Shown one piece after another: positions 44,378-63,890 of a DNA stretch of 64,000 bases. Position 1 is the stretch's first letter. The number at the start of each line of letters is the position of its first letter. Below the pieces are notes generated by a model. It saw only the letters and a list, made by a program, of their open reading frames with translations, ran no database searches and was not told the DNA's origin. This stretch comes from Spirochaetia bacterium (lineage in GTDB: Bacteria; Spirochaetota; Spirochaetia; WTKD01), in the NCBI GenBank assembly GCA_965243525.1, contig OZ251568.1, forward strand, positions 258,236-322,235, in the 5' to 3' direction. The translations under genes were made by a program, and so were the position numbers.

Positions 44378-44450
44378 CCGCTAAGACGACCCATGCAGGC
44401 AGCCTCTAAAAATAGAAGATTGCCTGCATGATGCTCTATTCCGTATAGAT

Positions 44451-44580
44451 TTCAATAACCCTGTTCATCTGTGGATCGATGATTTGATCTGGCCACCGCA
44501 TCCTCCTAACAAGGAGTATATCTGTTGTATTCCTTGTCCTTCTTTGCGAGACTTGACGACATTGCCGGTGCTTGAAGATG
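44451..44580 (-). pseudogene. Second remnant of the S24 repressor 3' end (duplication scar)
   Basis: CCGTATAGATTTCAATAACC...GGATCGATGATTTGATCTGG... aligns with 46400-46530 (...GGATCGATGATCTGGGTGCG...). Confidence 0.6.
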
Positions 44581-44762
44581 CGCCTCTGTTGATTCTGGAT
44601 AGCACATCAAGCATCAAACAATTCATACAATACTATTCATGCATAGTCCTCGTACGAAGTTTTTTAGCAAGCCTGAACAGCATCAAAAACCCACGAATAC
44701 TTGCAGAAATAGAACAGGCACGCTATCATATTTACTAAAACTCCCTATTTGTTATTGGATGT

Positions 44763-46331
44763 ATGAATACACAGAATCTACGGATTGGCTTGATTTTCTT
44801 AACTCTTTGTTCTCCACTGCTGCTGAGTTGTCCGGGACTAGGGGTCTATACTGGATTTCGCATAGGTGCTTATCCACCGGTCTCTCCATCAGATCCCTAT
44901 TGGAATACTCCCTATCATGACGCGGTCTTCAAAGCAACGCACAACTCATACACTAGATCAATTCCTGCTCAGCTTGACGCTGGGTTTCGCTTGATTGAAA
45001 TCGATTTCCACGATCAGGCACATACTAATTATGGGTATCGCGTTGGACATTGGTGGCCAGGGCATCAGGTTTCTTACGGCTATGGAAATCCTAACACCAC
45101 CAGGCTCCCTGCCTGGCTTTCGATGCTTTCTTCATGGTCACAGAACAATCCAGGACATGCTCCAATCACTCTGATTTTGGATACCAAGGATCCTATTGCA
45201 GATGCAGATAACGACGGGTACGCCGGACACAATCTATCTCGATTCAATCAAGAGCTACTCGACGCCTTTGGTCTAGACAACATCTATACGGCAGCTGAAC
45301 AAGGGCGCTCTTATCACTGGCCCCCTGTCGGTGATTTGCGCGATAAATTCATCATCGTCATGGCTGAAACTGGAAGGAGTGTAAATCGTCAGGCATATGT
45401 CGGAACCCTTGGAAAGACACCCGCAGTGGCGATGAATGACCATGGCCAGGTCATCGCAGTCTATCAGAAACCTATTTCACGTTGGCTTTGGTATTGGACC
45501 GGAGAATGGCAAACCACCAGCTCTGACAACAAGATGCCTACAGGAAGCATTCTCTGGTTGCGCAATCAGCGTTACGCTTGGGGATTCGATTACGAAAGCC
45601 CCCCTACAATTGCAATCAACAACGAAGGATGGATTGTTGCAACCCATCAGGGAATCAATCAGGTAATAAAATATCAATTGGGAAAGCTCACTCCTGAGCT
45701 AGACATAGACTGGAAGACAGCACCCATCTCGGCTAATTCCGGAAGCAATCCAGCCATTCGCTTCGACAGCCTTGACAGCAATACTCTGACGGCAATCTAC
45801 ACCGGAATCGACTCAGATACAACGATCTATGAACAAGATATTACGTTGCATACAGAGAGATCAACGCTCGAGCTGTCGGCTGCAACAAGCTCATCCAATG
45901 ATCAAAACGAATTATGGAAGAACGTGAACAGCGCAAATTCAAATACAGGCACTGTCAAAGTTAGCTCTGATAGAAAAAATCTCTTGACTTATTCTGCCAA
46001 CGGAAGAACCGACCGCATTCGCCTATTTCAAATCTCTTTCGTCGAAGCTGACCCAGTCAGGATCGGCAGAGACTCCTCATATGCCACGCTACTCACTGAA
46101 ACAACAGGCAGGTTTCATTCTTCAGATAGCCCTGACTCAACTGTTCGCTACAGAACCTCAACAAATGGGGATCCTTTTTTGATAACAAGAAATTTTATGT
46201 TTGGATTAGACGATGCGCATAGAATCAGCGATCCCCGCGCATTACCTAATTTCCCTGCACTTTACAATGCTCATGATTATCGAAGACCATGGTATCACGC
46301 TCTGTTTGGACAATTCAAACATTTCGAATAA
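44763..46331 (+). CDS. PLC-like phosphodiesterase lipoprotein, paralog 4
   Basis: MNTQNLRIGLIFLTLCSPLLLSC. The ATHNSY/IEIDFHDQ/YRVGH blocks. Confidence 0.55.
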   Translation: MNTQNLRIGLIFLTLCSPLLLSCPGLGVYTGFRIGAYPPVSPSDPYWNTPYHDAVFKATHNSYTRSIPAQLDAGFRLIEIDFHDQAHTNYGYRVGHWWPGHQVSYGYGNPNTTRLPAWLSMLSSWSQNNPGHAPITLILDTKDPIADADNDGYAGHNLSRFNQELLDAFGLDNIYTAAEQGRSYHWPPVGDLRDKFIIVMAETGRSVNRQAYVGTLGKTPAVAMNDHGQVIAVYQKPISRWLWYWTGEWQTTSSDNKMPTGSILWLRNQRYAWGFDYESPPTIAINNEGWIVATHQGINQVIKYQLGKLTPELDIDWKTAPISANSGSNPAIRFDSLDSNTLTAIYTGIDSDTTIYEQDITLHTERSTLELSAATSSSNDQNELWKNVNSANSNTGTVKVSSDRKNLLTYSANGRTDRIRLFQISFVEADPVRIGRDSSYATLLTETTGRFHSSDSPDSTVRYRTSTNGDPFLITRNFMFGLDDAHRISDPRALPNFPALYNAHDYRRPWYHALFGQFKHFE

Positions 46332-46381: not shown

Positions 46382-47374
46382 CTATCCTTCGAGCCTTCCC
46401 GTATAAACTCCGATGATTGTGTCCATCTGCGGATCGATGATCTGGGTGCGTCCGCTGCCATCCTCCCAACAAAGGGTATATCTGCTGTATTGCTTGTCAT
46501 CCTTTGCAAGACCAGGTGATATCGTCAGACGTTTGAAAGTGCAGCCCTCGAAATCGTGGACATAGGCAACGACCAAGTTATTGTGTTCAGGGATGCGATC
46601 TTGCACGGCAAAAACGATATCCCCGTCGTGAAAACCAAGATTTGACATGCTCTCACCCTTGAGTTTGAAAGCAATAAGGGCATTAATCGAAGCATGTGCG
46701 GGCAATTGTGCAATCGGCACCTCAATTTTTTTCATTTCTTCCGGAATGAGACGAGGATTTCCTGCGGCAAGATCCTCCACAAAGCGTATGCTCACTCGTG
46801 AATCGTCCACCGAAGACTCCCCCTGCTTGTTTGCAGCACGCCCCTCTCTCTCGAACGAAGCAGCCTCCAAATACCCATGCCCATCGACCTTCCCATCTTC
46901 CATAGATTCTTCCTTCCTTTTATGATCAACGCCGTCAATCTTGCTCATTCGTATCGGTGGAGAATGCATTTCAGAATCACGCACAGGGTCTGCATCAAGT
47001 CCAGAATCCTGATGCACAAATCCAGGATCCACCTCCTGCAACAATGCCAGCGTCGTGGCAGCAGTGTCCCGTGTGTCTTCAAGCGCCCTGATCAGCGCCG
47101 CATGCTTCACCGAGGTCATCCATCCTTCCCCTGCCTGCTGTTCAAACACCTCGCTGAGACCAGCATCCAGAGCGCGACACAGACGATGCGCCGTATCGAT
47201 ACGCGGAATCTTGCCTCCATAGAGGATGCCCGAAATGGTGCCAAAACTGACCCCGCTCTTCTGTGAAAGCCAATTCACCGACTGCCCCTTCTTGAACAAA
47301 GCCCTCTGTAATGCCCGTGCATACCTATTCATACGATCACCGGGATATCTGCCATCAAAGTGTTGACATATCAT
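46382..47374 (-). CDS. cI/LexA-like autoproteolytic repressor (XRE HTH plus S24 peptidase domain)
   Basis: N-terminal HTH (QSVNWLSQKSGVSFGTISGIL). Candidate Ala-Gly cleavage site (LAAGNP). C-terminal S24 domain with a Ser (KGESMSN) and a downstream Lys. The start could be the internal MNRYARAL. Confidence 0.7.
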   Translation of the reverse strand: MICQHFDGRYPGDRMNRYARALQRALFKKGQSVNWLSQKSGVSFGTISGILYGGKIPRIDTAHRLCRALDAGLSEVFEQQAGEGWMTSVKHAALIRALEDTRDTAATTLALLQEVDPGFVHQDSGLDADPVRDSEMHSPPIRMSKIDGVDHKRKEESMEDGKVDGHGYLEAASFEREGRAANKQGESSVDDSRVSIRFVEDLAAGNPRLIPEEMKKIEVPIAQLPAHASINALIAFKLKGESMSNLGFHDGDIVFAVQDRIPEHNNLVVAYVHDFEGCTFKRLTISPGLAKDDKQYSRYTLCWEDGSGRTQIIDPQMDTIIGVYTGRLEG

Positions 47375-47407
47375 CCTTTAAGGTATATCCTAAAGAATAT
47401 AGGAGTT

Positions 47408-47428
47408 TTGTCAAGTACTTTTTGACAA
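47408..47428. promoter_or_regulatory. Perfect inverted repeat TTGTCAA-N7-TTGACAA, a candidate operator between the divergent repressor gene and the phage-like regulatory genes
   Basis: Palindrome in the 84-bp divergent intergenic region. The half-sites double as TTGACA -35 boxes in both orientations. Confidence 0.5.
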
Positions 47429-47458
47429 TATCTACTATTTCTTGCGGAGAAAATCGAT

Positions 47459-47818
47459 ATGTTCAACCGTTTTCATAAGAAAGAGGATTCTCGATCCCCT
47501 TCAAAAACAAAAAACCAAACCAGAACTGCACAGGAGACGCAACTAGCTTTAGCCGTGGATTCCCCAATTGATAGGCAGACCGAAAAACAATCCACCGCCG
47601 ACACAGATATTGCTGTTTTTTCTCTTGGAATGAACAAAAAGCAGAGCAAAACAATCGCGCGATTATGGCAAGCCTGGGTGCAATCCCATCCAACCACGGC
47701 TCTGCATGCCTTCATTTGGCGATGCTTTCACAAAAACCCAATGCAGTTAACCAGGCGGGAAAGAAAAAACCTCATTAAGATGTTGAAAAAAGGAAGAATC
47801 CGCAGTGTCGCGACGTAA
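47459..47818 (+). CDS. Hypothetical protein (phage-like regulatory region)
   Basis: 119 aa ORF with a basic C-terminus. It overlaps the next gene by 14 nt. No recognisable domain. Confidence 0.4.
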   Translation: MFNRFHKKEDSRSPSKTKNQTRTAQETQLALAVDSPIDRQTEKQSTADTDIAVFSLGMNKKQSKTIARLWQAWVQSHPTTALHAFIWRCFHKNPMQLTRRERKNLIKMLKKGRIRSVAT

Positions 47819-48083
47819 TTCAGACTTGGATGATTATGAATATCTCTGCACCCTCATCGGGGAGGATGCAGCCCGCAAAGTTTATACGGCATTTGCAGGA
47901 TCAAATGTCTATTTTCCGCTGAAAAAGCAATTTCCAAGTCATCGAAAGATCGTCGAACTCCGCTCACAGGGGTATACGATGGATCAAGTCGCTCGCATAC
48001 TCAACACACCGCGCTCAACACTCTATCGAATTTTGAAGATTGAAAAGCAAAAAAATGTGAAAAGTTCGACAACAAACGTATAA
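47805..48083 (+). CDS. Mor/C-family transcriptional activator-like protein (Mu middle-operon-regulator type)
   Basis: 92 aa. AFAGSNVYFP...GYTMDQVARILNTPRSTLYRILK resembles the Mu Mor blocks GGGQVYIP and the C-terminal HTH ...LTTRYGVTFNTVYKAIRR. Confidence 0.5.
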   Translation: MSRRNSDLDDYEYLCTLIGEDAARKVYTAFAGSNVYFPLKKQFPSHRKIVELRSQGYTMDQVARILNTPRSTLYRILKIEKQKNVKSSTTNV

Positions 48084-48130
48084 AGACAGACTCTCCCATC
48101 GATAAGAAATACAAATCACGACAGATCTCT

Positions 48131-48155
48131 GCAGGTCCTCGGATGGAAGACCTGC
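48131..48155. terminator. Candidate bidirectional hairpin between the convergent Mor-like gene and the tail module
   Basis: GCAGGTC-N11-GACCTGC 7-bp stem. It has no strong U-tract, so it is weak. Confidence 0.3.
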
Positions 48156-48217
48156 ATCTAATAGGAGCCACGCAATCGACATGCTAGAAAATCGCATGCC
48201 TCCTGTGGTCATCAGGC

Positions 48218-48679
48218 CTATTCAGCTGGAGATTCGCCGGAACTTTCCGCATCCCTCGTCGACGCATCTGTCTCAGGGGCTGCATAATCAGACCAATCTT
48301 GCGACTCGACCCGACGATGTGATTCTGCTCGCACCGCCTCAACATAGGCGTGATACTCAAGAAAAGCCTGCGTTCCTTCTCCACCCGTCATGATCGTCGA
48401 CATATTTTCACGAACCAGCTCGCTCTCTCTGTTCTGGTCATAGCGCCGTGAAATCTGATCGACAACCCATGCCTTGCGTCGTGATTCAAGCTGTCTCGCC
48501 TTGGCTTTCTGCGGTGCCTGAACAATCACACCGTCTTCCAGTTTGAACTGCAGGTTGCCGTTATCATCCACCAAATCTTGAAATAATCCCTCTGGCATAT
48601 CCTCTTCTGAGAATGCGCCAACATCGTCCGCATAGATAGTGTGAATATACCCTTGCCTATTTGTTTCTATTGTATACAT
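48218..48679 (-). CDS. Hypothetical protein, possible tail-fibre assembly chaperone (Tfa-like)
   Basis: 153 aa. Its start overlaps the stop of the giant fibre gene (ATGA). The call rests on position and size only. Confidence 0.3.
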   Translation of the reverse strand: MYTIETNRQGYIHTIYADDVGAFSEEDMPEGLFQDLVDDNGNLQFKLEDGVIVQAPQKAKARQLESRRKAWVVDQISRRYDQNRESELVRENMSTIMTGGEGTQAFLEYHAYVEAVRAESHRRVESQDWSDYAAPETDASTRDAESSGESPAE

Positions 48680-51600
48680 TATGCAAAACCTCCTTGCAAG
48701 CGAATATTTAGGTATGCACTCGCGTTTTCGTTTTCTTGGATATAATCCATGATACCAAAGCTTGTAAAAAGAAAGCCGCCATCACTTCCTTGTGAGGGGT
48801 TATTCCTACAAAATAGATGTCGGTCCAAAATTCTATGCCCAACAACTCCACTACTATCAATATATCCAGGAACAGGGTACGTCAAAGTACTGTATCCAAT
48901 ACCCCAACCAGGATTGAATTTCAATCCACCTCTAAAGTTTCCGGGAAAATTAGAAAGAATAAAATACACGTGCAAGCAAACCACACGATAATATCCTACT
49001 TTTATTCTCTGATACCACTCAGATCCCCACTGCTGATTTTCTGGTTGTTGTGTCCAAATGTTTGATGGTCCAAATTCTGTATTTGAATTAATTAATGTGA
49101 AAAAGATACTTTTTCCACCTTCAGTGGCTGATCTGTGAACATAAAAATGTCCTCCATAGTGATTCTCAAATGCACCTAAAGGATGTATAGTATCATGCAT
49201 TACACCGGTGCTATTACCACTTGTAATGGTGTGTTTAATTCCCGTGTTCGCAGAGATACGAAGATCCCGACGAATGGAGGGCCTTCGATTCGGAGGAAAG
49301 ATTCCTTCCAAGTGAATGCCGTATTCAGCCGCACCATAGGGACTGGACATCGCAAGCCCCAATGCATCGAGCCTGGTCTTGCCAATTGCGGGAATTCCAA
49401 AGGAATAATAGTGTCCAATCGAACTCTCTCCCACATCTCTTCCAACACCTCGATTCAGTCCAGTTAATTCCATATCAAAATAGCTTGTCTGAATCTCTGC
49501 GTCGGCTAAATTTTTTCCTACCAAATTGCCCCCATAACCAACGCCGCTGACCGTTCCGATTGCATAACATCTCTCGATGCTTTGTTGATTCTGCCCCGCC
49601 AAGCCACCCATATCGTGGAAACTGCCAATTCCTGTGACTGCTCCGCCCGCTGTACAATCTTGAATAGTTCCGCTATTATTGCCTACGAGTCCACCCAGAT
49701 CTCCTGTTCCATTGACTGCCCCGCTCGCTGCGCATAAAGTAACACTCGTATCCACATCGTTAAATCCAACTAAACCGCCAACGTGTATCGATCCATTGAC
49801 CGTTCCGTTCGCTGCACTACGCGTTATGCTGTTTTTGTTTTCCCCCACTAGGCCGCCGACATGAACATTGTCTCCAGTTCCACTGATCGATTCATTGACA
49901 TCACCACTTGCAACACAACTCGCAATGTTTCCTTCATTCCAGTTTACTCCCACCAATCCCCCAACAGAAAGATGATTATCCTCACTCGCAACACTCCCTC
50001 TTCCAGTGACAGCTCCATTTGCTCTGCTCTGCAAGATACTCCCTCCGTTCCAACCCACCAAACCACTGAGATACAAATATGTACTATTTACATTTTCTGC
50101 ATTCATTTCGCATCTTGCATTCGCAGTGCTGTTTGTGATGCTGCCTGTTGCGTTGTTTGTTCCTGCTAAACCACCGAGACAGGTGTCTCTGTCAACCTCT
50201 GTAATACCCCCGCTCAATACAACAGATCCACGGGCGGCGGTAGTACTATCCGTGATACTACCGCTATTCGCTCCTACCAAACCACCAAGATACAGATACC
50301 TACTCGTTATGATGCCCTCATCCAAGGTGACTGCTCCACTTGCAATGCTGTCGGAGATACTGCCACGACTAGTTCCTGTCAAGCCACCGAGATTCAAATA
50401 AGTACTCCTTACGGTGCCATCACGCAGGGTAACTGCTCCACTTGCACTGCTCTTGGTGATACTGCCAGTATCTCCTCCTATCAGGCCTCCAAGGCGCAGA
50501 GAGTTACTACTCGTACTGGTTCCAGTTAGTTCGACTGTTCCACTCAGCGTGATTGATTTGTTTGCGTTGCTCTTGATGATGCTGCCAGAACTCCCGCCTA
50601 CCAATCCACCGAGTTGCAGAACGTTACTACTTTCACTGCTTCCATTCAGCGTGACTGACCCACTCAGTTTGATTGGTCCATTCAGTTCAGATGCTTCAAA
50701 TACGCTGCCATTGACGATGCGAGCATTATCGTAATTCCTACCCACCAAGCCACCAAGCTGCAGATAATTGCTATCTTCAACGGTTCCACCCAATGTCACT
50801 GATCCAGTCAGCTCAACCCCTCCACTTGCAATGTCATTAATGATGCTCCCAGAATTCGTTCCCACAAGACCACCAAGGCGCATGTAGATAGTATCCTCGG
50901 TAATTGTTCCAGATATCTTAACTGAAGCACTTGCGTGGTTCGCGGTGATCTTCCCATTATTCCACCCCACTAGACCACCAAGACGCAGTCTATTGTGCCC
51001 TTCAGAGCTTCCATTCAGACTGACTGATCCGTTTAGATCGATTTCCCCACCTGCACTACTGTTGCTAATCCTGCTATCCTTGTTCGAACCCACCAACCCA
51101 GCGAAGTCTAGATAGGTGCTATCCTCTGCGTTATCTGCACTCAGCTCAGTTGAATCTCCCATCGTGACTCCTCCACTCGCCTTGCTGTTGGTGATGCTGC
51201 TATCTGCATTCCGTCCTGTCAATCCACCAGAGTACAACTCTGTATACTGTACAGTGTCTCCAGATAACCTTACAGATCCATAGGAAACGCTGTTCTTGGT
51301 CCTACTTTCCGAATTCCATCCTACCAGACCTCCAAGATTCAGAGATTTGCTGCGTACAGTGTTCCCTTCCAACAAGACATCCCCCCCTGCAGTGCTGTTG
51401 GTGACACTGCTGCTAGCACTTACTCCCGCCAAGCCTCCGAGATACAACCGATGACAATTTACCGAGTCTCCGCTTATCGCTACGGATCCATTTGCTTGAC
51501 TGTTGATAATGCTATCATGGTTCAACCCTGCCAAGCCCCCGAACCTCAGAGCAAGATTATCCCTTGTGAGGCTTCCACTCAGTTCGATTGATTCATCCAA

Positions 51601-54600
51601 TTCGATTGAACCATCAGCCTCACTGTTGGAGATGCTGCCATTATTATCTCCCACGAGTCCCCCCAGAGTCAGATTGATTAGCTCTATATTCTCACCGGTC
51701 AACTCGATTGATTGATCCAGATAGATTGATCCATTTGCATAACCGTTGGTGATGCTGCCAGAAAAATTACATCCCACTAATCCGCCAAGACACAGATAAC
51801 TCTTATTCTCATTGTTTCCGGTCAACTCGATTGATTCGTTCAACTCGATTGATATATCTGCACTGCTGTTGGTGATGCTGCCAGAAGAATTCAGCCCTAC
51901 TAATCCGCCAAGTCTATCATTTCCTCTGATAACTCCTCGTTCTGCACTGCAGTTTTCGATGCGACCACGGTTAGCTCCTGCCAATGCCCCTACATATTTC
52001 TTCCCTGTAATGCTGGGATTCCTGCCATTGCCATCAATAAGCTCGAGCTTGAGATTGCGCACAAGGCCATTCGCTGCTGCATCATAGTCTTCGTCAGATC
52101 CTGTGCGACCTATCTGAACAAAAAATCCCACATAGTCTTCATCTGCCTGTGCTATCTGCAAGCCAATGATTGTATTGCCATTCCCCTCGAGGATACCTAC
52201 AAAGGGGTCATCCTTGCTGCCAATAGGATCAAATACGCCACTCAAGATGATGTCGTTTGCAAGTTTGAAGGTGCCCGCAAGATTGTCTCGAATCTTCTGC
52301 AGATCCGCTCCATTGTTAATTAATTCATAGGTGATGTCTGCGGCTTCAATATTCGATCCGATGAGCACGTCGGTGAGTTCTTGACCGTCCCGTTCAAGAC
52401 TTCCACTGAAAGTTGAACCGTTTATATCCCCTTCGTTTTCTCCAGCAACACCGCCAAGGACAGCATCTGTTTCATCTCCGATGATGCTTCGGACTACTCT
52501 TCCCTCATCGATCTGTCCACTGTTTTTCCCTGCGATGCCTCCAAGAACAGACTCTGTTCCGCTCGCCGTAATGTTACCAGTCTCTCCAGACACCATATCT
52601 CTCAGGCAACCACTGTTTTCTCCGGCGATACCGCCAAGAACAGACCCTGTTCCACTCGCTGTGATACCGGCAAAAACCCGTCCAGAATTTATATACCCGG
52701 TGTTTTCTCCCGCGAAGCCACCAAGGACGGCATTTGTCCCACTGCTGATGATAGTGTCACCTCTCACTGTTGAGTCATTGATGTACCCTCCGTTCTTTCC
52801 AGCAATCCCACCGAGAAAGACGGATTCTCCACTTGCTGTAAGGGTGCTTTCAGCATTTGCGGTATGTACATAACCAGTGTTTTCCCCAACGATCCCACCA
52901 AAAATGATGTTCGCTCCACTTCCCGTGATATCCTTGATGGTTCTTACATCATCTATGTAACCACTGTTTTTTCCAGCGATTCCACCCAAAACAGTTCTTG
53001 CTTTACTCACTGTCATGTTGCTGTCAAACCATGCATAATATAGATGTCCACTGTTCTCTCCGACGATTCCACCAAGAATGGCTGCTTCTTCATTCGTTGT
53101 AATACTGCTATAAACTGTCACAGAATCCACATATCCGCTGTTTTCTCCAACAATACCACCAACACGACTCTCTTCCGCACTTCCTTGGACGCTGCCTCCA
53201 CTCACCTCGACTGCTTCGATGCGACCATAGCTTTGTCCTGCCACTGCACCGGCAAACGCACTGCCTGCAATGCTGGGATTCTCAGCATCTCCATCCACCA
53301 ATACAAGATTCAGATTACGTACAACTCCTTGCTGATAAACGCTGACATCACCAACTTCTGGCGCTCCAATCTGAGCGAAAAAGCCTGCCTTGTCGGTTTC
53401 TGCTATCTGCAGACCACTGATTGTCTTGTCATTGCCGTCAAAAACTCCCACAAAGGGATTCTCTTCACTGCCGATGGGCTCAAATGCACCACTCAGTTCA
53501 ATGTCATTTTCAAGTCTGAAGTTTCCATCAAGCTCATCTCGAACCTTCTGCAAATCTGCTGCACTGTGAATCAGCGTATACGCCCTCTGCTCTTCTTCTG
53601 TGTTTCCAGCATCTGTCTGTCTCGATTGCCATTGCAGCTTCGGCCATGCTCCTTCTCGCATCTCCCACGTATTCTCAAAATCCCAACCTGGAAAATTTTC
53701 CTGGGTTATGATATCACCATCTCCAGTTCGAACCGGATGGAAGGGTGGCTTGCCTTCAACGAGCTTATCCTCCACCGCGACCCCGTGTTCAACAACACCG
53801 CCGCTCGCAAAATCATCTCCAATGAGCACCTCAGAAACAGTGTCATCTCGACGCTGTGTTCTGAACTTTGCCGATCCAGTCAAGAGGTTGAACTTGCTTC
53901 CTTCAGTGACTCCTGAATCATCAAATTGCTGCACCCCACCGACAATCACCGGATTGCCATCAGCATCTCGGAGTGGTGGTCCCTTCTCCCAATTCGTTGA
54001 TTTAAGCGTCATCGATTCCAAATGCGTTGCATCAATCTGATAAGCACCCAAATGATAGGCCTCAATTGAATTTGCCTGGATATCTTCACCCCTCCACGGA
54101 CGGATCTCAACATCCAGTGAATCAGACCATGGACTTTGTGCATGAATATTAGTTCTACTGTCCCAGTTATCGGGATCTTCGATGTTCACCTCGTCAAGAT
54201 TATCTGATCCATCTCCTCTGATAACTACTGGACGTGATTCTCCATACACCACGACACGCACACGAAAACGATATCGCTTGGGTACCGGTGTTTCCTTTAT
54301 GCTCGTGGAATTACCAACCCCACCTTCTGCAGAATCATCCTCTGCACCTTCTGCAATTGTCCCTGAGGAGTTATTCTCGACATCTTCTAAGGTTATTTCT
54401 GCAGAATCATCCTCTGCACCGCCTAAGATTGTTTCTGCAGAGCCATTCTCAACACCGCCTTCGCCTGTCTCTGTTGAGTGATCCGAACCCTGCGTGATCG
54501 TCGCCACACCGAGATCAAGTTTCGAAAAGGTAATAGGAATCTCTGCAGTCGCCGTATAATCCTTTTCCTCGTCTTGAGGGTTTTCCGGATTGAACCAAAC

Positions 54601-56604
54601 TCTGTCTTCATCGGCGAGATCATCAGCAGCATTTTCACTTGCTTGCACATGATAGATCAACTGCGAACCCTTGGGAAAATCATTGCTCAATGAAACCGTT
54701 TGCCAAGAGAGCACCACGGCGCGACCGTATTGGTCCACTCGAAGGTTATCGATTTCCCCCAGATGAATCGCTGGAAGAACATAGTTTCCCTGCTCGTCAA
54801 ATCCTTCCGCGGGGTCCTCGAAAGATTCATCTATTGCGATGGGCTGCAGACCTTGTCGCCTGGGCAATTCCTCAATGATTTGTTGTCGCTGCGCCTCAAG
54901 CATCTCTTCCATCCGACGCAACACCGCATCATCCCTGTTCAACACTGCTTTGGCTTCGCTGACAAGAACTTGATGCACATGATTAGTTGCAATCGGCTGA
55001 ACGATCTCAGACTTGTACGAATACATCGTCTCTGCACGCAAATCCTCGCTGTCAGGGGCCAAAAAATCGCGTATCTTTTCTTTTCGCTCACAAATCCGCA
55101 CCCGAAGCACCTTGTCTCGTTGAACTTGCTCGTTTCTGTCAAAGGAAACACGAAGGGTATAAACACCACCCAATTCCAAAGGTTTCCTGTTCTCAAAACT
55201 ACAACTCCGCTTGCCATAGCTTTCTATCTGATAATACGTCTCTGCAACTTTGGTGAGTATTCCAGAGCGCCTCTGCTCATCGCTTGGCAAAAAGAGTCGA
55301 TCTGCCTTTATCGTTTTTGGGTTTTTCGGCGCAACTCCTTCTGGCTTATAAACAAAGCGTTTATCGACTTCATGTTCAAGAGTAATATCTCCCCGTACTT
55401 CTACTTCCCATTTTCCCTCCCATTCATTCCAGTGAATTGCATAGAGATCATGTCCTAGCGTCAGCTTGATTGATTCAGGTTTTAGTTCATGAGAAAGGGA
55501 GAGATTACAACGCTGAGAAGAAACTCCTCTGTAATCTTCATGGCGAAACGTTCCCTCGTTAGTTTCGAACCAAGAATCAGATCTTTCCGTATGATGCCCT
55601 GATCCCCAAATAAATTGTCTAGTGGAAAGCTTCTTATAGGTTCTTATATTAGAAAATCGAGTGATCGTTGGATTTTCCAGCGAGGTTAATTTATCAAGGT
55701 CTGGGTCAAATTCAATTTCTTTTTCCTCTGTTTCATTACTCACTCGTGTTTTGATATCATCATAAAAATCCTCAACAAGAGGCACGTCTTCAAACGTGGT
55801 TATATCGCGATAAGAAAGATAGATTCCATCGTGTTCATATCCAGTATAGTTCACCGAGGTCTGTCTATCGAGCACCTCGCAATCCTCTGCTTGAGTTATT
55901 GCTTCAGTTGAAAGATGCAGATCTGCGAAACAAATATGCCCGCGTTCATCGGCATACATCGTGTGATGATGTGATTTGAGCACCTCAGTGATCGTCTTTA
56001 ATATCGTTTCATCGCCATCAAACTCGTGATAGGGTGCATCGTAGTCAATTGCCTGATCGGTGGGTGCAAGATTGATCAAGCCACGCAAATTCGAATCTAA
56101 ACAATCGAGCAATCCATGGATGAGTGATTTTCCTGGGTTATTTGGAAGAAAAACCTTGCGCTCTGAATCGTATTCAAAATATTTTGTATCATCTGCATCC
56201 TCATCCTGTGATGCTTGCACTATGTTGTTCTTCAGCAACCACAGTGAATCGTATATCCGAAAATCAGTTTCAGAATAGCCTTTTCCTCCAGAATTTTTCG
56301 TAGGAGGATCAAGAAACCCTGTGAATATTATTTTGTCAGAATATTCCCTTGTATGTGGATTATAATCCCCTTGGATCATAAAAACTTCTGCGCGAATCCA
56401 ATCGTAATCACCCAGGCGGATTTTTAAATCTTCCTCGCTAATCCACCCCTTGAGACGAAAACTGCAGGTCCCTATTTTTGCTCCACCTTGTTGGTGAAAC
56501 GTACGCTGTATTCTAAGCGTTTTTTCCCTGATGTCAACGGTATATCCAGCATACTGCGTGCCAGGATTCCCATCTTTGATAGCTGTTAAAAGTAACTTAT
56601 GCAC
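48679..56604 (-). CDS. Giant (2641 aa) phage tail tip/fibre-like protein with GLUG modules and long GGLVG-type beta-helix repeats
   Basis: It lies immediately downstream of the TMP-like gene. N-terminal roughly 550 aa of tail-tip-like region. WDFENTWEMREGAWPKLQW at about 53.6 kb. Two GLUG N-modules (DLQKVRDELDGNFRLENDIELSG... and DLQKIRDNLAGTFKLANDIILSG...). Roughly 2.8 kb of GGLVG.N repeats. A C-terminal domain of about 400 aa of unknown function. Confidence 0.7.
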   Translation of the reverse strand: MHKLLLTAIKDGNPGTQYAGYTVDIREKTLRIQRTFHQQGGAKIGTCSFRLKGWISEEDLKIRLGDYDWIRAEVFMIQGDYNPHTREYSDKIIFTGFLDPPTKNSGGKGYSETDFRIYDSLWLLKNNIVQASQDEDADDTKYFEYDSERKVFLPNNPGKSLIHGLLDCLDSNLRGLINLAPTDQAIDYDAPYHEFDGDETILKTITEVLKSHHHTMYADERGHICFADLHLSTEAITQAEDCEVLDRQTSVNYTGYEHDGIYLSYRDITTFEDVPLVEDFYDDIKTRVSNETEEKEIEFDPDLDKLTSLENPTITRFSNIRTYKKLSTRQFIWGSGHHTERSDSWFETNEGTFRHEDYRGVSSQRCNLSLSHELKPESIKLTLGHDLYAIHWNEWEGKWEVEVRGDITLEHEVDKRFVYKPEGVAPKNPKTIKADRLFLPSDEQRRSGILTKVAETYYQIESYGKRSCSFENRKPLELGGVYTLRVSFDRNEQVQRDKVLRVRICERKEKIRDFLAPDSEDLRAETMYSYKSEIVQPIATNHVHQVLVSEAKAVLNRDDAVLRRMEEMLEAQRQQIIEELPRRQGLQPIAIDESFEDPAEGFDEQGNYVLPAIHLGEIDNLRVDQYGRAVVLSWQTVSLSNDFPKGSQLIYHVQASENAADDLADEDRVWFNPENPQDEEKDYTATAEIPITFSKLDLGVATITQGSDHSTETGEGGVENGSAETILGGAEDDSAEITLEDVENNSSGTIAEGAEDDSAEGGVGNSTSIKETPVPKRYRFRVRVVVYGESRPVVIRGDGSDNLDEVNIEDPDNWDSRTNIHAQSPWSDSLDVEIRPWRGEDIQANSIEAYHLGAYQIDATHLESMTLKSTNWEKGPPLRDADGNPVIVGGVQQFDDSGVTEGSKFNLLTGSAKFRTQRRDDTVSEVLIGDDFASGGVVEHGVAVEDKLVEGKPPFHPVRTGDGDIITQENFPGWDFENTWEMREGAWPKLQWQSRQTDAGNTEEEQRAYTLIHSAADLQKVRDELDGNFRLENDIELSGAFEPIGSEENPFVGVFDGNDKTISGLQIAETDKAGFFAQIGAPEVGDVSVYQQGVVRNLNLVLVDGDAENPSIAGSAFAGAVAGQSYGRIEAVEVSGGSVQGSAEESRVGGIVGENSGYVDSVTVYSSITTNEEAAILGGIVGENSGHLYYAWFDSNMTVSKARTVLGGIAGKNSGYIDDVRTIKDITGSGANIIFGGIVGENTGYVHTANAESTLTASGESVFLGGIAGKNGGYINDSTVRGDTIISSGTNAVLGGFAGENTGYINSGRVFAGITASGTGSVLGGIAGENSGCLRDMVSGETGNITASGTESVLGGIAGKNSGQIDEGRVVRSIIGDETDAVLGGVAGENEGDINGSTFSGSLERDGQELTDVLIGSNIEAADITYELINNGADLQKIRDNLAGTFKLANDIILSGVFDPIGSKDDPFVGILEGNGNTIIGLQIAQADEDYVGFFVQIGRTGSDEDYDAAANGLVRNLKLELIDGNGRNPSITGKKYVGALAGANRGRIENCSAERGVIRGNDRLGGLVGLNSSGSITNSSADISIELNESIELTGNNENKSYLCLGGLVGCNFSGSITNGYANGSIYLDQSIELTGENIELINLTLGGLVGDNNGSISNSEADGSIELDESIELSGSLTRDNLALRFGGLAGLNHDSIINSQANGSVAISGDSVNCHRLYLGGLAGVSASSSVTNSTAGGDVLLEGNTVRSKSLNLGGLVGWNSESRTKNSVSYGSVRLSGDTVQYTELYSGGLTGRNADSSITNSKASGGVTMGDSTELSADNAEDSTYLDFAGLVGSNKDSRISNSSAGGEIDLNGSVSLNGSSEGHNRLRLGGLVGWNNGKITANHASASVKISGTITEDTIYMRLGGLVGTNSGSIINDIASGGVELTGSVTLGGTVEDSNYLQLGGLVGRNYDNARIVNGSVFEASELNGPIKLSGSVTLNGSSESSNVLQLGGLVGGSSGSIIKSNANKSITLSGTVELTGTSTSSNSLRLGGLIGGDTGSITKSSASGAVTLRDGTVRSTYLNLGGLTGTSRGSISDSIASGAVTLDEGIITSRYLYLGGLVGANSGSITDSTTAARGSVVLSGGITEVDRDTCLGGLAGTNNATGSITNSTANARCEMNAENVNSTYLYLSGLVGWNGGSILQSRANGAVTGRGSVASEDNHLSVGGLVGVNWNEGNIASCVASGDVNESISGTGDNVHVGGLVGENKNSITRSAANGTVNGSIHVGGLVGFNDVDTSVTLCAASGAVNGTGDLGGLVGNNSGTIQDCTAGGAVTGIGSFHDMGGLAGQNQQSIERCYAIGTVSGVGYGGNLVGKNLADAEIQTSYFDMELTGLNRGVGRDVGESSIGHYYSFGIPAIGKTRLDALGLAMSSPYGAAEYGIHLEGIFPPNRRPSIRRDLRISANTGIKHTITSGNSTGVMHDTIHPLGAFENHYGGHFYVHRSATEGGKSIFFTLINSNTEFGPSNIWTQQPENQQWGSEWYQRIKVGYYRVVCLHVYFILSNFPGNFRGGLKFNPGWGIGYSTLTYPVPGYIDSSGVVGHRILDRHLFCRNNPSQGSDGGFLFTSFGIMDYIQENENASAYLNIRLQGGFA
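49680..52480 (-). repeat. Coding GGLVG.N.GSI.NS.A.G repeat array (beta-helix-like) inside the giant protein
   Basis: Dozens of imperfect repeats of about 20 aa. The plus-strand shadow ORFs read PTKPP, the reverse complement of GGLVG. Confidence 0.8.
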
Positions 56605-57787
56605 CGATCAACTCCTCTGTTCTCTGCACAGAATTAACCATGCTCGCAAATTCATTTGCCACATCGGTTTCAATCACCGATCCCTGCACCGTAATATTGT
56701 AATTGTGGTAGGTATACACTATTTGATACCCTTTTCCACCCCCTCCTGTATAATCGTCAAGACGATCCAAGGGAATAATCGCCTCAGATTGAACTTCACC
56801 CACTCGATACAACCCACCATAAGGGGGTTGTGCTGGAATGATGCCTCCAAAGGCTGCCCCAGGATATGGTTGACTTGCAATCATGGCTATTTGTGTTGCT
56901 CCTATCGCCGTAGCAATCAGAGCAGTAGCTATAGCCACTGGGAGCGGATTGGTTGCAAATGCAGTCAGAACTGCAAGGCTCGTTTGAATAACTGCATTGG
57001 CAATAGCCACTTTCTTCTTTTGCTCAAATTTTCGTTTGTCAAGATCTTCTTGCCTTGCATCAATATCTTCTCGATCTTTCTGCAACTTTGCCATCTCTGT
57101 TCTTTCATATTCAACCCATTCTTCATTTGCTGCCTTGCGACGCTCAACCTCTTCCTCCAAAGTGCTTTGTTTTTCGTCAAGCCCTTCCGTATCCTCATCA
57201 ATCTCACTTTGTTCCTCTTGAAATCCCTCAGCAGCTGCTGCATCTACCATTGAAACAATTGCCGAAGAGAGTCCTCCAATGGCTGCTCCGATAGCCATGG
57301 CCTGTTCTTGCCATGTATTGCTTTTATCCTTCACTACTTTCGTTTGTTCACTATCATAATCTAAAAATGTATCAAGAATACCTACGACACTTTCAATAGA
57401 TGCCTGGATCCCCGAAGAAAATACGCCTGCTTTCTCTTCAGTTTCACCAAACATTTTCATTATTTCACCAACAACGGGACCCACAGCACTGGTGATACCT
57501 CCCGTCACATCAGAAAGATTCTGGACCCCCTCTGCCTTAGGTATCGTCGCAGCTGATCCGCCAGCGTCTTTTTCGGGAAATTCATGCCCAAAATAAGAGA
57601 GGACACTCGTGATCGCTGATCCTATGTCAAATGTTTTTAAACTAGAAAAGGCCTGTTCAATTTCACCAATACTTGTAGCACCCTCCTTAAAGAGACCAAC
57701 AAGATCCTTAACGGCTCCGCCAAATTCAGAAAATCCATCGATCATTGCATTTGTATCTGTTGTTTTATCCGCCATTTTTTTCTCCAA
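56597..57787 (-). CDS. Tail tape measure protein-like (short, 396 aa)
   Basis: Coiled-coil acidic central segment, a hydrophobic Ala/Ile-rich stretch (VAIANAVIQTSLAVLTAFATNPLPVAIATALIATAIG) and a Gly-rich C-terminus. It follows the G/GT chaperone genes. Confidence 0.6.
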   Translation of the reverse strand: MEKKMADKTTDTNAMIDGFSEFGGAVKDLVGLFKEGATSIGEIEQAFSSLKTFDIGSAITSVLSYFGHEFPEKDAGGSAATIPKAEGVQNLSDVTGGITSAVGPVVGEIMKMFGETEEKAGVFSSGIQASIESVVGILDTFLDYDSEQTKVVKDKSNTWQEQAMAIGAAIGGLSSAIVSMVDAAAAEGFQEEQSEIDEDTEGLDEKQSTLEEEVERRKAANEEWVEYERTEMAKLQKDREDIDARQEDLDKRKFEQKKKVAIANAVIQTSLAVLTAFATNPLPVAIATALIATAIGATQIAMIASQPYPGAAFGGIIPAQPPYGGLYRVGEVQSEAIIPLDRLDDYTGGGGKGYQIVYTYHNYNITVQGSVIETDVANEFASMVNSVQRTEELIGA

Positions 57788-57891
57788 TTTTCAATTTCTG
57801 GTGTACATACGCGTCTACAGCATCTTTGTGTAGGTTTCATTCTCTTCTCATAGTTTCCCAACAATGTATGATTAATCCCTGCAGGAAATTG

Positions 57892-58176
57892 CTAGTTTCT
57901 TTCTGCTTTTTTTTGCAATTTCCAATTTTCAACGCGTACATACGCGAGATCAATGATACGTAATACCGTAAGAACAATTGGCTTTTCATGAACATAGCCA
58001 CGCCCGTGGGGAAGTCCGAATTGTTTCCAATCTGACCAGAGTTTCATCGCTGAATAATACGTCTGGTCAAAGATTTTTCGCATCTCCTCAACTTCTATAA
58101 TCCCATCGGGGGTGATAACTGCCACATCGTCATCACCCCGACAGAATCCGCACAGGGCAGCCCGTATCAGTTTTTT
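57892..58176 (-). CDS. T-like extension of the tail assembly chaperone (GT fusion by a -1 programmed frameshift)
   Basis: The -1 frame is open from the slippery site through the 77-aa ORF (…KKLIRAALCGFCRGDDDVAVITPDG…) with no stops. Confidence 0.55.
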   Translation of the reverse strand, partial: KKLIRAALCGFCRGDDDVAVITPDGIIEVEEMRKIFDQTYYSAMKLWSDWKQFGLPHGRGYVHEKPIVLTVLRIIDLAYVRVENWKLQKKAERN

Positions 58177-58535
58177 TGTTGTTTCTCACTCAATTGCTCA
58201 CCTTGTGTAACATAGCGAGCAAGTTCCTGAACCAAGCCCATAATAACGGGGGTCTTGGCTCGTGCAAGCTGCAGCCCCGTTTCAATCTCTGTCTCTTTTC
58301 CATCAACAACTAATGAAAGATTGTTAATTGCTCCAACATGTTTTTCAAGAATTTCCTTGGTATCGAATCGAAATCCAATCGTGCCGTCCATTTGATAATT
58401 AATTTTTTGCAACTGCTCAGATTCCAAAACCGTCGGCATTGAAATATTCACTGTGATTTGTTCATCCTCATTCAGTTTTCGATTGCCATTCCACTTTGGA
58501 ACATAGCGAACCTTTGTATTGGTTGCGATTTTCAT
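58167..58535 (-). CDS. Tail assembly chaperone, G-like
   Basis: 122 aa, between the major tail protein and the TMP. It ends …EKQQKN* with A AAA AAC three nt before the stop. Confidence 0.55.
   Translation of the reverse strand: MKIATNTKVRYVPKWNGNRKLNEDEQITVNISMPTVLESEQLQKINYQMDGTIGFRFDTKEILEKHVGAINNLSLVVDGKETEIETGLQLARAKTPVIMGLVQELARYVTQGEQLSEKQQKN
58170..58176 (-). other. Slippery heptamer A-AAA-AAC (programmed -1 ribosomal frameshift site)
   Basis: Canonical X XXY YYZ heptamer immediately before the stop of the G-like ORF. The -1 frame continues into the downstream ORF. Confidence 0.6.
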
Positions 58536-58544
58536 GAACTACTC

Positions 58545-59249
58545 CTAAATCTTATGCTTGTACACGTGAGGATGTGCGCCACCAACAACCGTAAAATTAT
58601 AGTTGAAAGTCTGCATCCCACTTGCTGGCTTGTCTGTTGTGATTGAATCAACAATCATCGGCAAATACATCCAGATTTCATACCCACTTGCGGAGCTGCC
58701 CTTTTCTTTTCGAGAAAGCAATGCGTGGATGGTTCCAGCGCTTGATTTCCTCTTTTCTGTCAGACTACTACCTTCGTTCGTGACAATTGTCCAAAACTTG
58801 TTGAGCAGACGATCTTGTGCATCTGATCCATCAACAAAATAGCCATTGACTGCGCCAGAGATTTCTGGTCGCTCGCTGAGCACATAGGTCTTTGCCTCAT
58901 CAAGCTGAGTTGTTGCGTCAATCTTTTCAAGGGTGCTCCCCAATGTAATATCAAGCACATTGGCAAGCTTGACCAAGGTGAACTTTTTCAACTCATCACC
59001 TGCAGTCAGTTTTGTTCCAGCTGCAAATTCCGATGGAGTTTTGAAAACTCTGCCGGGGGTCATTCCGGCGGGAATGGGATAAATGTCAGTTCCAGTCGAA
59101 TCTTGAGATCTCAAAGACAACACTTGGTACCATGAATCTGCTTCCAAGGTGCTTCCACCGGTTAGGTTGGCCCCATCTGCAAAATCCAATTCATACAGGA
59201 GCCCTCGTTGTCCTGTTAAACGAATATCACTTATATCTCTTTGTGTCAT
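58545..59249 (-). CDS. Major tail (tube) protein-like
   Basis: 234 aa. It is called by conserved position, immediately upstream of the G/GT chaperone pair. Confidence 0.4.
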   Translation of the reverse strand: MTQRDISDIRLTGQRGLLYELDFADGANLTGGSTLEADSWYQVLSLRSQDSTGTDIYPIPAGMTPGRVFKTPSEFAAGTKLTAGDELKKFTLVKLANVLDITLGSTLEKIDATTQLDEAKTYVLSERPEISGAVNGYFVDGSDAQDRLLNKFWTIVTNEGSSLTEKRKSSAGTIHALLSRKEKGSSASGYEIWMYLPMIVDSITTDKPASGMQTFNYNFTVVGGAHPHVYKHKI

Positions 59250-59262
59250 ATATACTCCTTTT

Positions 59263-59607
59263 TTAGCCTGTACTTACCAGGCATTCTATCACCGCACGAA
59301 ATGCATGCCCTTGATCACTTACATTAACTTCAAGAAATTCAACTTCCTTTATATTCCATTCCGCAAACGATATTTCATTCCGCGAAAGTTCAGTAAGCGC
59401 CGAAAACAGCGTATCGCACGTTTCTATTTGTTGTACGCCAAAAATCGCAATACCATAGGTACGTAATTGTGTTTTTAGGTCGGTTTCCATGGAACTCGGG
59501 ACAATTCGGATCTCACTTTGAATACTGTATATATCTTTGTATCCTTGCTCCACCGTATATCCTTTGCCTTCCAGAAATTCAACCATTTTTGTTACAAGTT
59601 CATTCAT
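59263..59607 (-). CDS. Hypothetical protein, possible tail terminator/completion protein
   Basis: 114 aa. It is the first gene of the minus-strand tail module, with AAAGG 8 nt upstream. Confidence 0.3.
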   Translation of the reverse strand: MNELVTKMVEFLEGKGYTVEQGYKDIYSIQSEIRIVPSSMETDLKTQLRTYGIAIFGVQQIETCDTLFSALTELSRNEISFAEWNIKEVEFLEVNVSDQGHAFRAVIECLVSTG

Positions 59608-60147
59608 TGGTATACCTTTATGTGTAGATTATGCGATACTCCTCATGCATATTTTTCTTTGCTCACAAAGCACAGGAACCTTCCAGCAAGAATGCCTTCG
59701 TCTCTAAACCATCATGAAGAGGTGCACCTCTTTGTGATGTGTCTATTGCGCTCTGTAATGATTGCATCCGGATCTCCGCAATGTCCTGCCATAGTGTTGC
59801 ATGGTGCTTTGCATGTCCTGGTGTTGCTGCTTTTTCGTTCTATTTTCTGCAGCCTTTGGTGCGCCAGACATGGGTATCTGCATACATCATTGCCTATGGT
59901 CAACTGGTGCGGATGTTCGGTGCATCTCAATGTTTGCATTGCGATGAGAAATCATCTCACAGTCTTCATTTCTTCACCGTCTTTTCAGACGATATCTGCG
60001 CTGACATTCAACAAGCCAAGCTCGGTGTCTGCCATCACTGTGTTATTCTCGCATGACTGAGCGTACAAAATACAATCTCATTGGTACGGTGTTGTGGACG
60101 TTCTGAGCAGGATATTGTGTAGTGGAACATACAGACGTGTTCCTGGA

Positions 60148-60287: not shown

Positions 60288-60536
60288 TCACGGAGTCGCC
60301 AAATATATTTCATCGAGATAGATCGTTCCTGTATTCACGTTTTGTCCTTGAAAGGCGAAGTCAGTGATTTGGAACCCTGTGGTCTCTGCTAGAGTTAGAT
60401 CAAACATAGAAGGAGGAATCTCGACTCGAGTCCAACGATTGGACCCTTTAATAAAATCAGCAATCTCAATCTCTACGAAGCGGCTACCGTCATTATCTTG
60501 AAAGTTCACTAGGGCTACAGCAAATGTGTCAATCAC
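60288..60536 (-). pseudogene. C-terminal fragment of the paralogous lipoprotein family (truncated copy)
   Basis: 82 aa ending GTIYLDEIYLATP, matching the C-termini of the family at 60694-63501 (GTVYLDEVYLYMR). It has no signal peptide. Confidence 0.5.
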
Positions 60537-62425: not shown

Positions 62426-62673
62426 TGCATACTTCACTATATATTAACCCGTTTCTTGAGAATTCTCAAGATTTGCGGAGCTCCATCACCACACCATGTG
62501 GTTTGCTGTGTCTATAATACAGCGCGTCGCATACATGGCTTTATTATACCTATAGAGTATAATACAGAATATTCCACATAGCCAATTACATTATGCATTT
62601 TTTTTGTCTACTGAATAGCCATCAGAGCTCCTCGCCTTGATCGACGACCTCAGAATCTCCCTTTCGGCATTTT

Positions 62674-62729
62674 TGCAGAATAAATGTGATTTAGCGTGGA
62701 GTTTATTGCTATTTTAGGAGTTTGATTGC
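62674..62729. repeat. Intergenic repeat, copy A (TGCAGAATAAATGTGATTTAGCGTGGAGTTTATTGCTATTTTAGGAGTTTGATTGCC)
   Basis: Near-identical to copy B at 63752-63807 (about 90% identity). Confidence 0.8.
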
Positions 62730-63501: not shown

Positions 63502-63751
63502 TTCATATCTCCAAAATATGTATATTTCTTTCGTGGAAACTGTCAAGACCTGAAGCCCCCATTCATTACACTATATAGCCCGTTGCATATATAATTGCGA
63601 ATCATATACACATCTTGACCATCAGAATATAATGCGTATTTTTCGAGGAAACCAATTTCTTTATTGTTATTTTAGATTTTTTGCTTAATGCCTGCCATCA
63701 AGATTCTTGTCTTGCTTGAATATCGTGAAAATCCTCTGTGTGGAATATTTC

Positions 63752-63890
63752 TGCAGAATAGATGTGATTTAGCGTGGGATTTGTTGCTATTTTAGGAGTT
63801 TGATTGGCTGTGAAATTAAAAATCAGGGATGCAAAGGGCCGCTGCTTTGCAGAAATGCTTCACAAGGTGGGCAGCTGCATCCCAGTTTTA
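63752..63890. repeat. Intergenic repeat, copy B, with a distal part related to 60148-60266
   Basis: The first 56 nt match copy A. The following GGCTGTGAAAT...GGATGCAAAGGGCCGCTGCTTTGCAGAAATGCTTCACAAGGTGGGCAGCTGCATCC matches 60148-60266, including a GGATGCA/TGCATCC stem. Confidence 0.7.

Follow-up and report, generated by a model that had tools for sequence, protein, structure and literature searches.

A 64-kb stretch from the chromosome of a Spirochaetia bacterium (contig OZ251568.1, positions 258,236 to 322,235; referred to here as the window) carries a phage tail module of about 13 kb together with its regulators, embedded in otherwise ordinary chromosome. There is no doubt that the locus is a non-contractile tail module of phage origin, equipped with a CI-type switch, and it is headless as far as the window allows it to be seen. 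We tentatively read it as a headless tail module which is kept in the chromosome and gives rise, on induction, to a tail-like particle comparable to the F-type tailocins. This tailocin-like reading is a candidate, credible but unproven, and a well-preserved prophage remnant is only slightly less probable.

The tail operon consists of six tightly packed minus-strand open reading frames (ORFs) which run from 59607 to 48218 and encode, in leftward order, orf114, a tail tube protein, a G/GT chaperone pair, a tape measure protein (TMP), a giant protein of 2641 amino acids (aa) and orf153 (Table 1). All six ORFs are intact, translationally coupled and each provided with a Shine-Dalgarno sequence, so that about 11.4 kb are read without interruption; the last two junctions are overlapping stop and start codons, namely GTGCATAA between the TMP and the giant gene and TAATG between the giant gene and orf153. 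From the left, orf119 and the gene of a 92-aa helix-turn-helix (HTH) protein converge on the tail operon, and both are divergent from the gene of a 330-aa protein with HTH and S24 domains. All ORFs reported in the first-pass annotation of this DNA were found in the ORF listing at the positions given in Table 1. Its proposal that they follow the tail-assembly order of siphoviruses holds for the tube, the G/GT chaperone with its frameshift and the tape measure, whereas the labels terminator, tip and Tfa reduce to gene position.

Table 1. Genes and sequence elements of the tail module and its regulatory region (positions in the window).
Feature	Position	Strand	Description and basis
CI/LexA-like repressor	46382..47374	-	330 aa; Cro/C1-type HTH, long acidic linker, S24 autoprotease domain
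Candidate operator	47408..47428	.	perfect palindrome TTGTCAA-N7-TTGACAA in the 84-nucleotide (nt) divergent intergenic region
orf119	47459..47818	+	basic protein; first gene of the rightward regulatory operon, overlaps the start of the Mor-like gene
Mor/C-like candidate late activator	47805..48083	+	92 aa; small HTH protein
Hairpin between the convergent Mor-like gene and tail operon	48130..48156	.	inverted repeat TGCAGGTCCTC/GAAGACCTGCA
orf153	48218..48679	-	last operon gene; ATG overlaps the stop of the giant gene (TAATG); GGAGG ribosome-binding site
Giant tail-distal protein	48679..56604	-	2641 aa; GTG start overlapping the TMP stop (GTGCATAA), GGAG 7 nt upstream
Tape measure protein (TMP), short	56597..57787	-	396 aa; 392 aa from the ATG at 57775 after GGAG-N6
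T extension, -1 frame	57892..58169	-	frame open from the slip site
Slippery heptamer A-AAA-AAC	58170..58176	-	zero frame CAA AAA AAC, then TGA
Tail assembly chaperone G	58167..58535	-	122 aa; phmmer matches to relatives; AGGAG ribosome-binding site ahead
Tail tube (major tail) protein	58545..59249	-	234 aa; homologue context, AlphaFold2 fold, Foldseek
orf114	59263..59607	-	first operon gene, in the tail terminator/completion slot; position, 13 nt upstream of the tube gene
Near-perfect palindrome, 30 nt	59710..59739	.	CATCATGAAGAGGTG/CACCTCTTTGTGATG; about 100 nt upstream of orf114

Tail genes and their phage relatives

Judged by the context of its homologues and by its predicted fold, the 234-aa protein, which the first-pass annotation had called major-tail-like, is a tail tube protein. 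Standard searches gave little: the match to phrog_158 'major tail protein' was marginal (E=0.008), no Pfam family matched, and a word-indexed protein search returned the query only. No counterparts of the tube protein and the TMP were found by tblastn among GenBank phages, and PDB sequence searches with the tube protein, the giant protein and the repressor returned nothing. An exhaustive phmmer search of 1.8 billion representatives revealed 48 homologues of the tube protein with up to 36% identity. The AlphaFold2 model, calculated from an alignment of 76 sequences, reached a predicted local distance difference test score (pLDDT) of 90.8 and a predicted template modelling score of 0.85. In a Foldseek search of this model against the PDB, the top 50 matches were all proteins with the tail-tube fold; the tubes of T1 and phiXa were the best full-length matches, and the monocin tube (8qhs/9j1j), lambda gpV and the tubes of 80alpha and of gene transfer agents were matched as well.

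Six of the tube homologues were looked up in their genomic context, which led to eleven metagenomic loci (L001-L009, L090 and L091). Two of these (L008 and L009) start at or just before the tube gene and are unreadable upstream of it, and in all nine loci which reach upstream, connector-sized small genes directly precede the tube gene. The longer loci also carry portal, protease and capsid genes upstream of the tube gene, terminase genes are present in L001-L003, and two of the pre-tube genes match Tail_completion_gp17 weakly. On the 3′ side of the tube gene come two small ORFs and then one long ORF, except in L090, which ends just past the tube gene. Complete copies of the long ORF encode 697-858 aa, apart from one of 418 aa (L091), and the ORF is matched by PF06791 TMP_2 in L004 and L005. 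These uncultured siphophages share with our locus a homologous tube, G and T in the same order; they differ from it by full head modules upstream, where the sequence reaches that far, and by 2-4 tip genes of ordinary size downstream.

The head modules of the relatives belong to three types, characterised by lambda GpA/portal_2, by an HK97 portal/S78/capsid set and by an SPP1-type portal with MuF and SU10. The occurrence of three head-module types beside the same block indicates that the tube-G-T block travels as a unit. As an observation in its own right, the combination of this block with three types of heads shows clearly how modules are exchanged where head and tail genes meet.

The earlier assignment of a G-like chaperone with a T-like ORF reached by a -1 frameshift was borne out by homology of both parts to the phage pair and by the heptamer A-AAA-AAC, which can be read directly in the sequence. 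G is related to the post-tube ORF of L007-L009 (phmmer, 2.5e-21), and L001-L006 and L091 were matched as well. The T extension, of which the 77-aa ORF at 57892-58125 is the distal part, matches -1-frame ORFs overlapping the ends of the G genes in L007 (5.5e-8) and L001 (7.8e-8). In the relatives the slip site is kept at the same place, directly before the stop codon of G, reading GTA AAA AAC TAA in L007 and CGA AAA AAC TGA in L004. As the proteins of these two loci are only about 30-35% identical to those of the window, conservation of the heptamer over this distance is good evidence that the frameshift yielding G and G-T is functional. The RNA 3′ of the slip site was predicted to be more stable than all 200 shuffled sequences (z=-3.2); its main hairpin lies about 22 nt beyond the slip site, so that little weight can be given to this value.

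Position, family matches and hydrophobic segments also agree with the proposed short tape-measure-like protein. The C-terminal half of the TMP matches five tape-measure PHROGs with E-values from 5.9e-8 to 1e-3; phrog_9483, phrog_25337 and phrog_1506, annotated as 'tail length tape measure protein', match at 6e-8 to 6e-6. The protein is weakly similar to the TMP of L003, and its hydrophobic segments comprise residues 159-182 and 256-301.

The giant protein is composed of an orphan N-terminal region of about 1000 aa, a middle part of GLUG-repeat modules (Pfam Glug, 1.5e-49) and an orphan C-terminal region of about 310 aa. No homologue of the N-terminal region was found in Pfam, PHROG, protein, PDB and viral-contig searches, and none of the C-terminal region was found either; the putative identity of the N-terminus as a tail tip, assumed in the first-pass annotation, is suggested by gene position. 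The GLUG modules, which are plausible binding domains, are 30-37% identical to the GLUG proteins encoded at 35197-38101. Lipoboxes are present in all three GLUG proteins of the host, whereas the giant protein has no signal peptide, as would suit a protein that is mounted on a tail in the cytoplasm and not exported by Sec. The idea that the gene encodes an ordinary GLUG adhesin for export and lies beside the tail genes by accident was rejected, because the lipoprotein signal is missing and the start codon overlaps the TMP stop codon. The free-standing GLUG-repeat lipoproteins of the window are encoded at 20698-22188 (+), 35197-36366 (-) and 36506-38101 (-), and their modules, including a short C-terminal tryptophan-rich motif, recur in the giant protein at 30-50% identity.

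The two outermost genes of the operon gave no family assignment. For orf114, the position fits the annotation as terminator-like; no Pfam or PHROG family matched at E<0.1, a viral-contig scan returned nothing, an hhalign comparison with the pre-tube proteins of the relatives gave a probability of 0.1%, and the single-sequence AlphaFold2 model was unusable (pLDDT 44), so that neither family, hhalign nor structural support was obtained. For orf153, sub-threshold family matches only were found in Pfam and PHROG, and these lend no support to its annotation as Tfa.

Regulators and the age of the element

The 330-aa protein contains HTH_26/HTH_3 and Peptidase_S24 domains above the Pfam cut-offs (Peptidase_S24, 1.1e-6; HTH_26, 2.9e-5) and matches phrog_4 'transcriptional repressor' (1.6e-16). 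Comparison with the LexA sequence of E. coli assigned the LAAG motif with Ala204-Gly205, the GESM motif with Ser242 and the FKRL motif with Lys281 to LexA residues Ala84-Gly85, Ser119 and Lys156, respectively. The palindrome TTGTCAA-N7-TTGACAA is the sole copy with fewer than three mismatches in the window and overlaps the -35-like hexamer of a leftward promoter-like site at 47414-47387; a rightward promoter-like site is located at 47363-47391. The domains, the Ala-Gly site, the Ser/Lys dyad and the unique palindrome are all in line with the autoproteolytic S24 repressor and the perfect palindromic operator which had been predicted at this place.

The 92-aa HTH protein had been annotated as a Mor-family activator. 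Its role as a late activator is supported by phrog_836 'late transcriptional activator' (7.7e-8); family membership in the strict sense is less certain, as Pfam Mor (PF08765) scored 22.0 bits over model positions 25-101 of 107, below the cut-off of 24.9, and phmmer found no match to a Mor protein in the PDB. The label Mor-like is, on these matches, reasonable but unproven. Like the Mor/C late activators of phage Mu, the protein is small, carries a C-terminal HTH and is encoded downstream of a divergent promoter which is presumably under repressor control; it differs from them not only by staying below the Mor threshold but also by its best Pfam match, the resolvase-type HTH_7 (4.4e-8). No Pfam or PHROG family matched orf119.

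To the left of the repressor gene lie four tandem lipoprotein paralogs with a PI-PLC-C1-like domain (38478-46331, +), which share 53-72% aa identity and have near-identical signal peptides and lipoboxes.

Two decayed and frameshifted copies of the 3′ end of the S24 gene (its last ~120-200 nt) were identified at 44441-44552 (76% nt identity) and 42084-42204 (74% nt identity). Each of them is situated 60-80 nt downstream of a PI-PLC paralog, and the intact S24 gene likewise follows the fourth paralog. This arrangement indicates that tandem duplications of the PLC genes copied part of an S24 gene which was already in place. The junction between PLC and S24 genes is therefore older than two or more rounds of PLC duplication, after which the paralogs diverged considerably, to 63-72% nt identity, and the repressor gene, by this evidence of its copies, is an old resident under selection. 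Over such a time, one would expect an unselected ORF of 7.9 kb to have been closed by mutation. Should the tail operon be as old as the repressor, its intact 11.4 kb would imply purifying selection.

Genomic setting

No head, portal, terminase, integrase, replication or lysis families were detected in the window, and when all ORFs in the head modules of the relatives were searched against the same 64 kb by tblastn, no remnants of these head genes came to light. The first-pass statement that capsid, portal, terminase, lysis and integrase genes are absent nearby consequently holds for the whole window, which includes 4.4 kb on the head-proximal side. Holin, endolysin and spanin genes are missing from the locus, no att-like direct repeats flank the module, and neither an integrase nor a tRNA junction is near it. 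The GC content and the codon usage of the module are host-like, codon usage having no power on residence time in a genome with almost no codon bias.

The operon is bordered by two inverted repeats. The hairpin between the Mor-like gene and the tail operon, which has no T-run, is a possible bidirectional terminator. The palindrome upstream of orf114 could be a candidate activator or regulatory site, or a terminator of the upstream genes; it lies in a 670-nt gap in which no Rfam family was found.

Beyond this gap, on the upstream side of the module, small lipoprotein paralogs form a tandem array at 60.3-63.5 kb. Directly beside the gap, 60288-60536 (-) encodes an 82-aa truncated C-terminal fragment of this family, after which a terminator-like hairpin is found at 60291-60278. 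A 60-nt element occurs upstream of two of the paralogs, at 62669-62728 and 63747-63806. Its copies are 92% identical and thus far better conserved than the lipoprotein genes (35% aa identity); the two genes may have it in common as a leader or as a regulatory sequence.

Elsewhere, the window encodes sugar ABC transporters, two Dak operons, GH16/GH43-like enzymes, CysS and TctABC. The best matches of CysS do not exceed 50% identity, and among them metagenome-assembled genomes of Spirochaetaceae and of Bacteroidota/Balneolaceae rank equally. The two copies of the Dak1+Dak2 dihydroxyacetone kinase operon (714-2380 and 9818-11484 (-); 77% and 64% aa identity) both adjoin sugar-transport genes. Genes for 5S rRNA and tRNA-Pro(CGG) are located at 34662-34771 (-) and 34966-35039 (-), with no 23S or 16S rRNA gene nearby, which points to unlinked rRNA genes. 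Two adjacent ankyrin-repeat proteins of 437 and 552 aa, unusual in free-living bacteria, are encoded at 25467-28395 (+).

A tailocin-like particle or a prophage remnant

F-type tail-like particles have been described from a handful of genera only, namely Pseudomonas, Listeria, Enterococcus and one alphaproteobacterium, and their killing mechanism is still unresolved in the literature. The assertion in the first-pass annotation that they are not described outside Proteobacteria was wrong, since the monocin of Listeria and the efagins of Enterococcus are F-type. Lysis cassettes are present in the F-pyocin, monocin and efagin clusters.

The F-type pyocins of P. aeruginosa (pyoF) resemble the locus in being headless clusters of tube, G/GT chaperone, TMP and tip genes. 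Their regulators PrtR and PrtN, an S24 CI-like repressor and a small activator, are paralleled by the repressor and the Mor-like gene, and an orphan 95-aa ORF occupies the tail-terminator slot, as orf114 does here. In contrast to the locus, the F-type pyocins carry a lysis cassette and lambda-type M/L/K/I/J tip genes and are conserved across strains at a fixed site. The locus is without a lysis gene, a single 2641-aa GLUG protein stands in place of all tip genes, its proteins show no sequence relationship to those of the pyocins, and its activator is Mor/HTH_7-like rather than PrtN. Monocin and the efagins are likewise headless, have adjacent regulators and follow the order terminator, tube, two chaperones, TMP and tip. 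The monocin cluster differs by separate Dit (FtbK), hub (FtbL) and side-fibre proteins, a TMP of 622 aa and a holin-lysin cassette, none of which is recognisable at the locus. Of the F-type tailocin architecture which the first-pass annotation had proposed, the missing head (in the window) and the PrtR/PrtN-like pair of repressor and activator can be maintained; a lysis cassette and a recognisable distal tail protein (Dit) or hub, as in the known F-type clusters, are lacking.

If the locus encodes such a particle, the HTH-S24 repressor bound at TTGTCAA-N7-TTGACAA would shut the rightward promoter of orf119 and the Mor-like gene in uninduced cells. DNA damage would activate RecA and thereby trigger self-cleavage of the repressor at Ala204-Gly205, residues which are present in the protein. 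The Mor-like protein would then turn on the single leftward operon from orf114 through tube, G/GT, TMP and giant genes to orf153. The tube protein, with its predicted tail-tube fold, would polymerise around the 392-aa tape measure, aided by G and the frameshifted G-T, homologues of the phage chaperones. A tape measure sets about 1.5 Å of tube per residue, from which a short tube of about 60 nm is predicted. The 2641-aa protein would tip this tube, and its GLUG modules, which it would have taken over from surface lipoproteins of the host or have in common with them, would bind target cells.

The tailocin-like reading is supported by the identities of tube, G, T and TMP, by the lack of head genes in the window, by the PrtR/PrtN-like regulators and by the precedent of F-pyocins for a small orphan ORF in the terminator slot. 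Simple decay is made less likely by ORFs that are intact and coupled, by conservation of the slip site, by a module edge that is clean and by the age of the PLC-S24 junction, and the shared GLUG modules without a signal peptide, together with host-like GC content and codon usage, suggest adaptation to the host.

Several observations weigh against it. In the ORFs between 46.3 and 60.7 kb, neither a lysis-related Pfam or PHROG match nor a holin-like transmembrane profile was found, and release of the particle is left without an explanation from the locus. After the TMP, a single orphan giant ORF is present in contrast to 2-4 genes in the relatives, and no Dit or baseplate hub is recognisable. 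The missing lysis cassette and the missing Dit and hub genes argue against a canonical tailocin. The TMP has about half the length of most of its relatives (697-858 aa), which could reflect a deletion; the gene in this slot of L091 encodes 418 aa. Apart from the palindrome, the non-coding 670 nt ahead of orf114 are featureless, with no clear promoter. The window covers 46 kb on one side of the module and 4.4 kb on the head-proximal side, upstream of orf114. Every protein checked was a singleton at 90% identity; the lineage is therefore essentially unsampled, and there is no related genome in which conservation or purifying selection would be visible. Finally, the argument for antiquity strictly covers the S24 gene and not the tail genes.

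A cryptic prophage remnant is only slightly less probable than the tailocin-like particle. A siphophage would have integrated and later have lost its head, packaging, lysis, replication and integration genes by deletion, leaving the tail operon and the immunity switch without a host function, or with the repressor alone retained for superinfection immunity. Defective prophages are far commoner than tailocins, which counts for this explanation, and like the locus they comprise a subset of phage genes in the chromosome without integrase or packaging genes; unlike them, the locus has a module free of pseudogenes that starts cleanly with the first tail gene, and a regulator of demonstrable age. 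Loss of genes is consistent with the missing lysis cassette, integrase and Dit/hub genes, with a TMP that is short compared to most relatives and with the 670-nt non-coding gap and truncated lipoprotein paralog at the head-proximal boundary, yet it would have had to end exactly at the first tail gene. Three proteins of the module are orphans without a detectable family, as may be expected of a remnant, whereas about 11.4 kb of coupled ORFs, including one of 7.9 kb, are uninterrupted, the frameshift heptamer is preserved exactly and the composition is fully host-like. The repressor gene was in place before the PLC genes diverged to 63-72% nt identity, which would have given ample time for decay.

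A complete, possibly rearranged prophage is improbable. Its head and packaging module would have to lie past the end of the window, of which 4.4 kb are visible upstream of orf114, or elsewhere, with the lipoprotein genes inserted between; in all nine relatives which reach upstream, connector and head genes directly abut the tube gene, and at our locus this space is taken by tandem lipoprotein paralogs of cellular type with their own conserved leaders and a terminator. A switch of repressor and late activator is typical of temperate phages and would suit this explanation, but the integrase, att-like repeats and tRNA junction that should accompany a prophage were not found near the module.

Very improbable, and purely conjectural, is a module which supplies tails to the tail-less capsids of another element, as a mirror of the capsid-forming satellites, or which serves as a GLUG adhesion or delivery device instead of a bacteriocin: the giant protein with host-adhesin-type GLUG modules and no signal peptide, a gene in the terminator/completion position, which would be needed for head joining, and the missing lysis gene, by which release might depend on a partner, would be compatible with it, but no partner element is visible and the terminator label of orf114 reflects its position only.

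The tailocin-like reading can be extended to a long-domesticated, SOS-inducible, non-contractile tail particle of a deep-branching and little-sampled lineage (possibly Spirochaetota), unrelated in sequence to pyocins, monocins and efagins, with a single GLUG tip protein and no lysis cassette; in this complete form we consider it unlikely. Even as a remnant, the locus anchors a family of tube, G and T proteins of diverse metagenomic siphophages which was previously unannotated (no Pfam match), and it illustrates well how the A-AAA-AAC frameshift site of the chaperone gene is conserved. If this extended reading is true, F-type tailocins would have arisen independently here, for a fourth or fifth time and with a tip of new architecture. 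The short tape measure of the locus, the one giant tip protein with host-adhesin modules and the absence of a lysis cassette would then test which parts of such particles are required, and a separate origin so far from the known lineages would illustrate how often flexible phage tails are domesticated.

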